DNA of 64,000 bases from Octopus vulgaris (Eukaryota), in NCBI GenBank assembly GCA_951406725.2, contig OX597824.1:64108001-64172000 (forward strand), given 5' to 3'. Position numbers and translations under genes: made by a program. Under the pieces are notes generated by a model, which was not told the DNA's origin, did no database searches, and saw nothing but the letters and a program-made list of their open reading frames with translations. This document shows, in pieces, positions 3,217-63,254 of this stretch (positions are counted from its first letter, which is position 1; each line of letters opens with the position of its first letter).

Positions 3217-5987
3217 GAAGGAGAAATGAGAGAGAAAATTTCCAGAGAGTACAAGAGAATTCAGAAGGTGCTTGAAACAAAATTAAATGGAGGGAATATC
3301 ATTAAAGTAATAAATACAAGGACTATGCCAGCATTAAGACACTCTGCTTCCTTTCTACAATGGACAAAAGTCAAGGTGAAGAACTTGGACAGAAGAACTA
3401 GGACGCTGCTCACAATGCACACCACCTTAAAAGTAATACCAACAGATACCAAAAAAGGAAGGAGATAGGGGATTACTAAATGCAGAAGTCACAGTTAATA
3501 CTGTAATAATGGGATTAACTAGTTATGTTATGCAGATTGAAGAAAGAAAGCTATTTGGCAGCCAGAGATGCACAAAAATTTACTGAAACAATAGAATTCA
3601 GGAACAGAAGATAAAATAACAGAACTAGCAAATGACAAAAACATGGAATTACATGACCAATTCATATAACAAACCAAAGATGCTAGAGGTAAAAAACACT
3701 AGCTATGGCTGATGAGTGGAAACCTGAAACAAGAGACCAAAGTGCTAATTACAGCCACTCAAGAACAAGCTGTTCAGACATATCTGATAAAGCCACATAT
3801 TCTTTGAATGCCTTTAGTACTCTATTGCAAGTATTAAAACCAGAGCCTTTGCTTATAGACAGTCATCTTATATGAATATGTTCTGTCTTGAGGTATGAAT
3901 AACATCAATCTACCAATATAGCAAAGCTTTTAAAGACTGGACAGCAAATGCAGAATCTGCAAGAAAGGAGATGAAAGTATCAATCATCTCTTGAGTGAGT
4001 GCAGTCAGCTAACACAAAAAGAGTACAAGTTCAAGAATATTTGCATAGTATTCAAATACAAGGGACATTTTCCTTGTTTCTGCCTGTCTCTGTCTCTTTT
4101 GTTTACTCTTGTCAGTTCGAGGTCATTGTGAATTCTTGGCAGAGGAGGAGGAGGAAGAACGTAGGACTACAACAACATCTTTATGGCCACAAGGCCCAAG
4201 GATGTTGAGGAAAACACAAAAAAATACAGTATATATAAGAGTGGAGGTTTATATGAAGATATATATATAAAAAGTAACTGCAATAACAACAACAAAATAA
4301 CTGGAGAAATGTCAATCAATGAGCCCCACAAATCTAGATTTGCCCTGAGCCTCTACTAGTTCTCATTTTCAGGCCTACAAGTGCACGATGAGAGTATGTC
4401 CTTTCATTTGGGTCCACCTTTTTCACCTCCAATAAGTTTACTGAAGAGCAGCAGCTTCTATCCTCATCTTTATTCGCAAACAGACCTCAAAAAGGCAGCG
4501 AAGTAGGGTTTTGACTGAAGAGGAAAGTGTCTGCTCTCAAGTCCTTTCTGTACGTTCCTATAAACAGGATTCCAATAAAGTTACTCCAACAGTATCTGGC
4601 ATTTTATTAATTCTGCAATACACTGCTCTCAATATTGCTGTAAGAACAGCAGCAGCTGAAACATTCACAAGTTTCAGAAAATACAATAGGAAAGTAGAGG
4701 ACTGTCTATTCAATACAATGGAACAGTATATGAAAGGAAATACCAATGAATGGAATGTGAAATTTCTGTAAAACTGAGAAGATGCAGCTAGACAATAGCC
4801 ATTCCATTATTCCATTATTCTGAGAGGGGGGAAAACTTTTTAGTATTATTTATCATTTAGCACTGCTAATAACACAAAGGACCAGGTCTTTCAATTTGTC
4901 TATATCACATTCTTGAAAAGGGCATCTGTGGCCTGTTAAAAGGTTTGCTTTCCAGCTACATGATTTTAAGTTCAGTCCTACTGAGTAGCACCTTGGCCAA
5001 GTATTTTCAGTTATAACCCTGGGCCAACCAAATCTGTGTGAGAGACAGAAACTGAAAGAAGTGGATGTTAGTGTTTTTGTGTCTTTTGCTTTCATATCAC
5101 ATGATAGATGTAAATGAGTCACTGTCATACAAATGGAGCGTTTCATTTCCAGACTTCCATGTTCAACCATGGGGAAATATTACTTCACTTGGAAACAGGT
5201 GAAGCGCATCAGATTGTAGAAAATTTATTTTAATGGATTCCATCTGACCCATGCAACCATGAAAAAGTAAATGATGATGATTAGAAACCTAATAGAATCA
5301 AAGCAGAATTATGCTTTGCTTGTTTTGTTTTTTTTCTTGAAGTGAGATTAGAGACATAGACGCTGTGTATGTGTATTTACATAAACACACATACAGATAT
5401 ATATATATATATATATAATACACATGTGTATGCATACATACATATACTAACAAAAACATACATATATATACATACACATACACACATTATGTGTGGGTGT
5501 GTGTGTGTGTGAGTGTGTGTGCGCATACATATACACAGAAATATATACACATACACACACTCACATAGAAAATTATCAGGAAGAACAAAATCACTAGAGC
5601 ATCAAACAAGGAAATGTTTTGTGGAGCCAGACTGTATCTCATCAATTTTTTTCATTACATCCCTTGACAACTAAATCCTCTTCACTATTCTTCTTTCTGA
5701 GATCACTAAGACTAAGTTAAATATCAGGCAGACTATACTGCAAGTGAAGAAGGAATAAAACCCTAGAAGAGAATATTCCCAGAATAGCAAAGTAGCTCAA
5801 AGACTGAAACCAAGCAAAGACTAACAGAATATGAAGAAATTGGTCAAAGAGAGGAATGGTAAGAGTTTTGAACAGCCAGTATCCTGGTTGTTTACTAAAA
5901 TAAATCAACAAAAAAGGTTGTTATCTCAGAAATGCCATGGGACAAAATGAGGAATTTATGGAATTAAAGAAAATTTGAAAGACTCAC

Positions 5988-10192: not shown

Positions 10193-10232
10193 GTGGAAAA
10201 TAAAAAAAAAAAAACAAGGGTATAAATATTTT

Positions 10233-10446
10233 GTTCCTACATATGTTTCTCTATTGCAGTTATTTGGAATTCAGCATTGGATTCCAAATGCATTTGGATA
10301 CTAAACTGCAATGGATATTAGATCTCTATAACAGAATGCAATAAGGTGTTCCCCTGATGGCCTATTACAGTTCAGCATTCAAAAACACTTGAAACACCCG
10401 ATGTCAAGTCCCAGACAACTGCAATGGTAATACATAAGTAGGAACT
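10233..10446 (+). mobile_element. Inverted-repeat PLE-type relic with a degenerate long-stem-II hammerhead (10348-10445)
   Basis: Plus: GTTCC c CTGATGg cCTATTACAGTT..AACTGCAATGG taat ACATAAGT A GGAAC. The antisense arm at 10233-10266 keeps AACTGCAATAGA GAAACATATGT A GGAAC. Related copy at 46170-46490. Confidence 0.5.
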
Positions 10447-11348: not shown

Positions 11349-12084
11349 AACAATTTGACAGTATGATGAAGGTGAGCAAGCTGAAACTTCAAAGTCACAG
11401 TCAACCTTTCCTTATAAACATTTATAAATAGAAATATTAAATTTTGCCTATATGGTTTACACTGCACACAGTTGTCCACATTAATTTTATATATATGCAT
11501 ACACACATGCAATATATACACAAATGTATACATACATGAATACATATATATTACATATCACCATTTAACATTCGTTGTCCATGCTGGCATGGGTTCAACA
11601 GTTTGACCAGGCGCTGCACTAGACTCAGTCTGATTTGGCATGGCTTCTACAGCTGGATGCCCTTTTTAACACCAACCGCTCCAAGAGTGTAATGGGTGCT
11701 TTTATGTGCCACCAGCATGGGTGCTAGTTATGTGACACCAGTATCTGCCACAACTACAATTTTACTTGGCTTGATGGGTCTTCTGTGTATATATACAAGA
11801 TTATATAAAGTTTATATACAAGATTATATAAAGATATTACTATAACATTATTATATATATATATATAATTTTGTTACAAGGATTCTTAAGAATCAAGGCT
11901 CATGAACTTTATAGGGCACCAAACATGGCTAGGTACAATAACACAGAGCTAACAGTAAAATAAACAATATTAAACACGCCAAGTGTTGGCAGGATACTGT
12001 AAATATATATAAGTACCAAATCCAATATAAACCATAGATCCAACTGAGGGGCAGATCTTTGGTGCAGTCTAAGTACAAAATGGT

Positions 12085-12414
12085 GTTTAAAATTTACAAC
12101 AGCTGTTTCGGTAGACTTTTATATAATGCAGTTGTAAAGATTTCATATCCTTGTATTGAATATATAACATAATGAAACTGTGGGGAAGAAAGTATGTACA
12201 CAATGCACTACCATTTCTATTACATGAGGTTCAATACTCTGTATCAAAGGCTCACAGTGACTGCTACCAACACCAACTGTCAATTGCTCATAGTTCTTTA
12301 CTTTATAATGAGTCAGTACACCTTTTAGTCATTTGGTGGGTGGTTGGAATCCTTCCACAACAAAAAGATTACATCATGATATAAAATACACCATCATCAT
12401 GTAAAGTTTTAAAC
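12085..12414 (-). ncRNA. Hammerhead motif with ~275-nt stem II insert (C3 mutated)
   Basis: Minus strand: gtttaaaa-c-TTTAC aTGATGA t GGT ...~275 nt... ACC GAA ACAG CTGT T GTAAA-ttttaaac. 13-bp helix I with one bulge; palindromic helix III ACAGCTGT. Confidence 0.6.
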
Positions 12415-13054
12415 AGACTCCTTATAGTCGAATATCGAGGAGAATTAGATGTGGCTTAAAACTGGAAAATAAGAAACAAAGAGATCGTATAAATATACAA
12501 CCTAAATTCACTTATCTAAATTAGTTTATAGTTTAACAATGAGACCAAATAAGCTGAGAAATCAATAGATGTAGCAGTGCCATGAGTTGTAATTAAAAAG
12601 TCATCAAAACCTTAGTAAATTTATTCTCAGTTAAACAGGAGATATCAAGGAGTTCACTGATCACCAAATTTAAACAGTCAACAACCTTCATCCCTTTCTA
12701 TCAATATGTAGATACAATCGATAAACACACACATATATATTTATAGACAGATGCACACATCACAGTACATAAAAGCATATAAACTGTATGAATACACACA
12801 CACACACATACATATACATGTGTATAAACACACATATATATCACACATTCCTGGCTGATGCACAGTAGTAAAATTTTATAGGCAAAGGCGTGGTTGTGTA
12901 GTAAGAAGCTTACCCCCCAATCACATTGTTCCTAGTTCAGTCCCATACAGTGGCACCATGAGTAAGTGTCTTCTATAGCTTCAGGCTGACCAAAGCTTTG
13001 TGAGTGGATTTGGTAAATGGAAACTGAAAGAAGCCTATCGTGTGTGTGTGTGTA

Positions 13055-13097
<43 letters not shown>

Positions 13098-13394
13098 AGT
13101 AAAGGACAACAGGGAATGGAAAGTAAAACACTGGACTATCAAATATTTCACTAGTAGTTTGAACACAAAAGTTGCTAAAACATTACATTGAGTACATAAT
13201 TAGAGAGAATAAATGAAATAGTGTTACGTGTTCAATGATGGAAAGAGAAATGTAAATGGCAGAAGTAGGTGACTTAACGAGTATAGATATCCAAGATAAT
13301 GTTAAAGTATAAGTCACTCCTATCTTTAAATTAATATTCAAAGGTACAAAAATGAATCAAGTTGACTAAATTAAATTACAAAATATAGGTTTAA

Positions 13395-13610
13395 CCCTTT
13401 CATTACTGTATTTATTTTGAGATGCTCCATGTTTCTTTCAATTAATCTTAAATCTAACAAAGGATTTAGTAAAATAACTTAGTTATCATTAAGCTAGTGT
13501 TAGGAACATTAATTGAGACAAAAGTTTGGTGGAAGATTTTAATTCAAAACTTATGAAAATTGGACATTTGTACTACAGAGCCGGTTTTAGCCAGGTTGGT
13601 AATGAAAAGG
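13395..13610. mobile_element. piggyBac-type MITE
   Basis: TTAA TSDs at 13391 and 13611; TIRs ccctttcattac / gtaatgaaaagg. Confidence 0.75.
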
Positions 13611-13913
13611 TTAAATAAATGCTTATAGGTAAGAGATTAACTACTAAATATTTAAAGTGTTTTAGTTAACAGGTTTAAAATTTTTTTTAAAAGTGTTTCT
13701 AATGTAGTGCAAACATTTTGGCCAAAGTTCACTGAATTTATAAAGGAAGGACATTACCTGAGCACTTTAGGATTTCCAAGAATTCAGCACAGTAAAGTCA
13801 ACACCCATACCAATCGTTTTAGAAGGTCAGGTATGCTTGATTATATTCCAAGTAATAAGGAACTTCACAGTTCTATCTTACGTGTTAACTTTTTATATAT
13901 TTAACTGGTAGGT

Positions 13914-13917
<4 letters not shown>

Positions 13918-46169: not shown

Positions 46170-46490
46170 AATTATGATAGATACAAATTCATATTTTTTG
46201 TTCCTCACCAAGATTTCAGCATTGTGGTTATTTGCAATGTCAGCATTGGATGTTCGAAATGCAACTGGATCCTGATCCACAACAAATCGTCAAGGGCATG
46301 TACTTTATTGCATTATGTTAGCTCAACTACAAAGATTTGTGTAACATAGTGCAATAAAGTGTTCCCTGATAAATCTATTCAGGTCTAGCATCCTACTCCA
46401 CTTGAAACATACAGCGAAGTGGTTGCAAGTAACCACAACAGTGAAATGTATGCAGAAAACGAATTATATAAATTTGTGTTTGTCATAATT
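46170..46490 (+). mobile_element. Second copy of the 10233-type inverted-repeat PLE relic
   Basis: Terminal inverted repeats aattatgatagatacaaatt / aatttgtgtttgtcataatt; GTTCC CTGATaA ... GAAATGTATGCAGAAAAC; shares cagcattgga, gcaataa.gtgttccc and cacttgaaaca with 10233-10446. Confidence 0.45.
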
Positions 46491-63218: not shown

Positions 63219-63254
63219 AACTGCCTGATGAATGTGAAACTCTGAGTAGCAGTT
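63219..63254 (+). ncRNA. Hammerhead motif with collapsed stem II inside an inverted-repeat element (63163-63293)
   Basis: AACTGC CTGATGA atgt GAA ACTC-T-GAGT A GCAGTT; 6-bp helix I, GUA triplet, only 4 nt between the core halves. Confidence 0.6.

Follow-up and report, generated by a model that had tools for sequence, protein, structure and literature searches.

Penelope-like elements (PLEs) carry minimal type I hammerhead ribozymes. PMC4209133 and PMC6765202 describe these as having a helix III that is short and palindromic, one additional base following position 9, and G10.1-C11.1, and as cutting weakly and as dimers. A second relevant system is the discontinuous hammerheads of CLEC2. These are presented in PMC2950038, PMC6765202 and PMC2920678 as active, situated in mRNA 3′ UTRs, recurring across mammals and keeping their tertiary contacts, and they have been sought with inserts in loop 1 or loop 3. 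The non-LTR retrozymes also combine a type I hammerhead with a PLE origin (bioRxiv 10.64898/2026.07.22.740005).

The locus described below lies in a window of 64,000 nt, by which we mean the whole stretch of DNA analysed, from a 2.8-Gb, microsatellite-rich genome. It resembles the hammerheads that Cervera and de la Pena (2014; PMC4209133) described in PLEs, and is a broken member of that kind. It differs from the Schistosoma elements reported there (4-5 bp, 7-8 bp) in having a helix I of 12-13 bp and a stem II region of ~55 nt, and from the PLE hammerheads given there in being interrupted and carrying C3>A. Like the CLEC2 ribozymes, it has two parts on one strand, hundreds of nucleotides apart; unlike them, its insert sits in loop 2 and is an identifiable long terminal repeat (LTR), its core is broken and no host gene was found by Pfam. 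Nor does the window locus contain tandem units, a difference from the retrozymes. We consider it very probable that we are dealing with a type I hammerhead in the 3′ end of an old PLE copy, with a solo LTR in its stem II loop, and that the arrangement is an inactive accident of nested transposition. In the open-access literature searched, we found no paper on this hammerhead family or on transposon-split hammerheads.

The two halves of the hammerhead

Read on the minus strand, the 5′ half (12389-12414) comprises the 5′ strand of helix I at 12414-12401 (gtttaaaa, 12414-12407; a bulged c, 12406; tttac, 12405-12401), the core AUGAUGA (12400-12394), an extra unpaired U (T at 12393) and the 5′ strand of helix II, GGTG (12392-12389). 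The 3′ half (12085-12113, same strand) supplies the 3′ strand of helix II within TACC (12113-12110), GAAA (12109-12106), ACAGCTGT (12106-12099), T17 at 12098 and the 3′ strand of helix I (gtaaa, 12097-12093; ttttaaac, 12092-12085). Helix I has 5+8 bp with a single bulged C, helix II has 4 bp, one G-U among them, and helix III is the palindrome ACAGCUGU, from which a monomer can form no more than 2 bp and a 4-nt loop. Cleavage is predicted after the U at 12098, at the triplet GUU. GAAA, an NUH site and three helices in type I order are all present in the window copy; the core CUGANGA is absent, AUGAUGA standing in its place. An earlier sequence-only reading had reported these halves, a 13-bp helix I with one bulge, the palindromic helix III and C3>A, and we recovered all of them at the same positions. 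The native arms of stem II follow inwards, both on the minus strand: the left arm (12363-12388) ends in TCTTT (12368-12364) plus one T, the match to the family stopping at 12363, and the right arm (12114-12140) opens with the right target-site copy of TCTTT (12140-12136).

A descriptor with helix I of at least 5 bp, helix II of at least 4 bp and a palindromic helix III within 400 nt, fitted after the match was known, matched once in the window and never in 150 order-2 Markov simulations, both strands included. Stronger proof than the simulations comes from sequence comparison: the two halves have their counterparts in a single repeat family, where they form a contiguous unit. Each half, searched alone, finds this same family. 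The proposal of a type I hammerhead whose halves belong together stands. The prediction that length-limited searches would miss it was also borne out, Rfam giving no match above the gathering score in the whole window. Since the family's stem II of ~55 nt escapes Rfam and short-spacer descriptors, the number of such elements may be underestimated, some of them passing as 'ribozyme-less'.

The family counts given here, of 56 copies or of 61-67 loci, cover the best-scoring matches only and include inverted partners and a few near-duplicates. The core CUGANGA occurs in 34 of the 56 copies, and the cleavage triplet is GUC in 30, GUU in 11 and GUA in 5; an intact core is kept in 19, and ATGATGA is seen in just one of these 56 other copies. 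In an alignment of 52 copies, which left out three with large deletions and one near-duplicate, 89% of cells were paired, against 31-50% for slid partners. Covariation did not exceed that of shuffled alignments (296/500 shuffles reached the score), and the three pairs with two-sided, compensatory change were equalled in 429/500. RNAalifold likewise predicted no consensus pairs. Because the intact core survives in 19/56 copies only and covariation is not above shuffles, we conclude that the hammerhead family is decaying.

The hammerhead core contains a C3-G8 pair, which C3>A breaks. That C3 and G8 pair agrees with the U3-A8 covariation given in PMC4209133. When the window copy was folded, helix II had a probability of 0.0 and helix I, closing across the insert, 0.80. 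The hammerhead fold lay 9.6 kcal/mol above the ensemble; eight uninterrupted copies spanned 2.2-9.8, which places the window copy at the edge of their range, and the insertion by itself would not have to abolish the fold. The minimum free energy structure of 12080-12420 had a z of -1.12 and was not a hammerhead, and no second family copy was found within the window. Given the loss of C3, the lack of a predicted helix II and the lack of a second copy in the window, this copy would not be expected to cut, in agreement with the earlier suspicion that it is probably inactive.

Other hammerhead-like motifs were noticed. At 63219-63250 (+) there is a compact type I hammerhead with an intact CUGAUGA, a 6-bp helix I, a 4-nt stem II region and a GUA site, matching its earlier description as having almost no stem II; similar DNA occurs at one other locus (L192). 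Positions 10230-10430 and 46200-46440 (+) are two copies of one repeat, with no sequence in common with the split-hammerhead family, in which a hammerhead-like CUGAUGG or CUGAUAA is followed ~30 nt later by GAAAC; a long hairpin lies at about 46300-46360. A stem II loop of ~55 nt had been attributed to these copies (10348/46360), and our scan found no hammerhead match there. Elsewhere in the genome (L211, near 3130, minus strand), a hammerhead that differs in helix I and II shares the GAAACAGCUGU helix III and has a stem II of 20 nt.

The Penelope-like host element

The hammerhead belongs to a 5′-truncated, decayed PLE 3′ end at 11850-13917 (-), made up of an endonuclease remnant, a 3′ UTR, the hammerhead and a tail, which begins beside a (GA)n/(CT)n run and ends at a (TA)n run. 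It is collinear with two other loci (L167 and L109) in four DNA blocks of 69-80%, and family coverage extends over 12733-11850. The frameshifted C-terminal remnant of a GIY-YIG-type endonuclease lies at 13765-13871 (-), where tblastn with the remnant of a third locus (L168) gave E values of 0.001 and 0.17; its DNA is 68.5% identical to that of L109, whose frame matches PLE endonucleases at an E of 6e-8. The nearest Atlas cluster of the probe protein is named GIY-YIG (score 0.96). L167, L168 and the window each have a remnant of this kind upstream of their hammerhead and in the same orientation. The endonuclease of L103 was rejected as the host's own; it is part of a different young family and was used as a probe only.

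Within the element, two insertions are nested: one with terminal inverted repeats, MITE-like, at 13391-13615, a gap relative to L167 with copies in L229, L103 and L145, and a dispersed repeat, SINE-like by look, at 12886-13060, with many matches in both orientations at unrelated loci. A conserved 3′ UTR segment at 12430-12733 (-) has 40 other matches at 68-84%. The tail of ~230 nt (11850-12078, -) is present only in some copies; it has 308 candidates in the genome and comes after the hammerhead at 18 of 61 loci. Of these 61, 28 have an inverted piece of the family upstream, and 24 have a microsatellite a short way behind the cut site, compared with 260 of 1609 random windows (16%). Inverted partners, tails and microsatellite neighbours are described for PLE insertions (PMC8557442).

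An intact 717-aa PLE protein encoded in the same genome, to which the endonuclease remnants can be aligned, shows RWK, DKT, CxCX5C, CxxC and CxH, and degenerate CxCX5C, CxxC and CxH traces in L167, L168 and L169 align with it. Section 11 of PMC8557442 lists these motifs as marks of the Hydra clade. The host family is therefore likely to be an old Penelope-like one of the Hydra clade, the clade resting on motifs read by eye. It resembles the Hydra-clade elements of that source in its C-terminal GIY-YIG-type endonuclease, its degenerate linker/CxxC/CxH traces, its canonical hammerhead, an inverted truncated partner, a one-sided tail and (TA)n neighbours; it differs in the length of the tail, ~230 nt here against 30-40, and no full ORF of it was recovered. 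Against the assignment, the loci examined yielded no reverse transcriptase (RT) of this family, and RT pieces in L078 and L168 were rejected as host RT, being 81-87% identical to a separate young family. Pfam and PDB gave no name for either full PLE protein, nor Pfam for the endonuclease probe, and the helix III word had no match in the one supplementary table of Craig et al. 2021 (PMC8557442) that was searched.

Two young PLE families were noticed in the same genome. The one with the 717-aa ORF and Hydra-clade motifs (L224 2490-4640 and 4839, +; L204-L225) has a high copy number, with 13,051 candidates, and includes a tandem array (G000:C3:37224262-37237602). It carries a type I hammerhead ~200 nt after the stop codon, whose core reads CCGANGA (C4) in 25 of 27 pattern matches, one locus being counted twice. 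The U4C change lowers hammerhead activity in vitro (PMC3088659), and a spreading family with the C4 variant near fixation may be worth an assay. The other (L201 890-3616, +; L203 1004-3703, +) encodes 899-908 aa with a long low-complexity linker and has 16,961 candidates; in a simple scan, no type I hammerhead turned up directly behind its ORF. The window also holds LINE-like RT and zf-RVT remnants, below the Pfam cut-off, at 2261-2797 and 3934-4128 (+).

The insert and its history

A genome search with the whole split stretch returned matches to its middle only. This middle, 222 of the 277 nt between the halves (12141-12362, minus strand), corresponds to a solo LTR of Ty3/Gypsy type, with 682 candidates in the genome, the best 40 of which were scored at 78-84% identity. 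Its boundaries are sharp, with the start at 12362 and the end at 12141, and sister copies flank gag-pol. Among 29 other LTR loci, 10 are followed by a motif resembling a primer-binding site (PBS) or by the start of gag, 5 are preceded by a polypurine tract (PPT), 9 are solo and 5 have no end found. An exact 5-bp target-site duplication accompanies 5 of the 9 solo copies and also L104. One 1.8-kb element has L005 and L016 as its LTRs; its duplication, CATAC, is exact, and a gag-like DUF7083 frame lies between the LTRs. Frames beside sister LTRs gave RVT_1, RNase H, Integrase_H2C2 and rve, and an aspartyl protease below the cut-off; the integrase adjoins the 3′ LTR in sister copies and is thus the last pol domain. 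The window LTR is itself flanked by a near-perfect 5-nt duplication: TCTTT stands at either end, the left copy having an additional T.

LTRs of Ty3/Gypsy elements have TG...CA termini, a PBS and gag after the 5′ LTR and a PPT before the 3′ LTR, with integrase last. The present family agrees in its TG start, PBS-like motif, gag, PPT, 5-bp duplication and terminal integrase, and differs in its 3′ end, which is ...ATAAAA and not CA; an end in ...AAA was seen in nearly all copies whose end was found. That the 5-bp duplication comes directly after ...ATAAAA in this family (L002-L030 and window 12141) points to a non-canonical integrase end. We assign the insert to the Ty3/Gypsy-type solo LTRs because of its sharp ends and because sister copies have PBS, PPT and gag-pol neighbours and 5-bp duplications. 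Three tandem copies of the same LTR, ~390-420 nt apart, were noticed at L105 998-2490 (G000:C24:26873196-26874194).

LTR and hammerhead proved to be independent of each other. None of the 29 other LTR loci has hammerhead halves, none of 67 hammerhead family loci has the LTR, and the host-LTR junction pattern has a single match in the genome, at the window locus. Both halves lie close together in 39 of 63 family loci, the others being truncated or too decayed. With 420 nt allowed between the halves, the native spacer was short, 19-52 nt in all 56 two-half copies, with a mode of 45 (15/56). Searching the halves separately, as the sequence-only reading had suggested, thus confirmed that they co-occur in other copies, but at this spacing and not at the ~275 nt of the window copy. 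Removal of the LTR and the duplication from the window spacer leaves 25+25-5 = 45 nt, the commonest length in the family.

Genome-wide patterns with gaps of up to 500 nt, the reach of which ends at inserts of about 450 nt, gave long forms in 2 of 25 and 2 of 45 matches, at the same two loci; by a hand count of distinct matches, 55 of 57 are uninterrupted. The second split copy (L226 1485-1985, minus strand; G000:C2:180578119-180578599) has an intact CUGAAGA, GAAA and GUC. Its stem II holds a different, SINE-like repeat of 386 nt, present in 31 of 236 sequences compared, with a duplication of ~14 nt. The core is intact in both parts of L226 and, owing to C3>A, not in the window copy. The predicted probability of helix II in L226 is 0.56.

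Sequencing runs of other organisms bear on the order of events. In an organism D run, one contig spans both LTR junctions, with C3>A present and four other letters different; C3>A also occurs in runs labelled organisms E and A. For the related organism F, three runs from two studies gave a 93%-identical contig across the 5′ LTR junction, and every piece covering 12400 in X15 and X18 reads the intact C of a CUGAUGA core. Since organism F has the LTR junction with C3 intact, the LTR likely predates the split from F, and the insertion is likely to have preceded C3>A. No organism F contig bridging the 3′ junction at 12141 was found among those listed, and none of the runs examined showed an empty orthologous site; LTR-skipping joints were rejected as such a site, being short, more diverged pieces that fit paralogues. 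Another organism F contig, tied to the locus by similarity only, is 94% identical over 11994-12114. Its 7 differences all fall within 12035-12062; the stretch 12063-12114, to which the 3′ half belongs, is free of changes, where about 6-7% is seen in the vicinity (a post hoc result of a single comparison, naive P about 0.03). The unchanged 3′ half is the one hint of constraint, and a weak one; the 5′ half differs from organism F at 3 of 55 places among those listed, like the background.

On the nested-transposition reading, the incoming PLE would have carried a ribozyme in one piece which, with a helix III of 2 bp capped by a palindrome, would have cut mainly as a dimer, since this is how other PLE hammerheads are described. 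A full LTR element would then have entered the loop at TCTTT, and its two LTRs would have recombined so that one remained. Finally, C3>A would have arisen in the lineage of the sequenced genome. Several details count against this account: the TCTTT duplication is exact only if one T has slipped, the LTR ends in ...AAA rather than CA, the fold penalty stays within the range of the uninterrupted copies, the 3′ half is unchanged in the organism F contig, the runs examined gave no empty site, and neither a host RT nor a Pfam name for the PLE proteins was found.

Accident, slot or working ribozyme

The sequence-only reading had suggested that stem II may act as a variable cargo slot, and one might extend this to a family in which long inserts at this position are tolerated or captured and then spread with the element. 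The stem II region is indeed unusually long, at about 55 nt, its spacer varies from 19 to 52 nt, and the long inserts, in 2 of 57 copies, both lie near the apical loop. However, the inserts come from two mobile repeats unrelated to each other and bounded by separate target duplications, the LTR junction pattern has a single match in the genome, and in the gap searches each long form occurs at a single place. The insert in the window is moreover a solo LTR known from 29 other loci without hammerhead halves, and the stem II differences between 10348/46360, 63219 and the window copy, once offered in favour of a slot, are differences between unrelated repeats and not one slot varying. By a rough estimate from the window copy alone, ~0.07 insert is expected per 50-nt loop, and 2/57 is not above this; since that copy contains two further nested insertions in about 1,400 native nt, no special slot is needed, and we judge one highly improbable. 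A long box C/D snoRNA or scaRNA, with ATGATGA as box C and a terminal stem, would fit RUGAUGA and the pairing of the two ends. Against it are CTGT, not CTGA, before the 3′ stem, the lack of an Rfam match, a family in which the A is a change from C, and the C of organism F; the family state had already refuted this candidate, which can be practically dismissed.

A different question is whether the split, accidental in origin, might work as a CLEC2-like discontinuous ribozyme in a host transcript wherever the core is intact. Helix I is predicted to close across the insert, organism F keeps CUGAUGA and an unchanged 3′ half, L226 has all its core elements and a moderate helix II, and one F run, guessed to be RNA, has a contig over the 5′ junction. 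Runs X11 and X18 are RNA by guess only, and their pieces over the locus, at depth 2-6, were not used as evidence. On the other side, C3>A is shared by the window and the D, E and A runs, helix III needs a partner and none is in the window, PLE hammerheads cut weakly even as dimers (PMC4209133), and the 5′ half has changed like its surroundings. Nor was a host gene found: Pfam searches of 137/137 minus-strand and 150/158 plus-strand filtered frames of at least 45 aa, in which short exons can be missed, gave no host-gene domain above the cut-off, the minus strand yielding two sub-threshold matches only. The earlier assumption that minus is the pre-mRNA sense therefore found no confirmation in the open frames. 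Taken together, a working split of this kind is very unlikely, and an inactive accident of nested transposition remains our preferred reading.

Nested insertions are routine in repeat-rich genomes and PLE hammerheads are known, so on this reading the finding matters little. However, the two split copies with an intact core, L226 and that of organism F, offer a cheap test of whether insertion creates working discontinuous hammerheads. That transposon insertion into a long PLE stem II makes natural discontinuous ribozymes that still cut is a long shot. If it were true, L226 and the organism F orthologue would be origins of CLEC2-like split hammerheads caught in the act, and C3>A in the window copy would be the later silencing of a split ribozyme.
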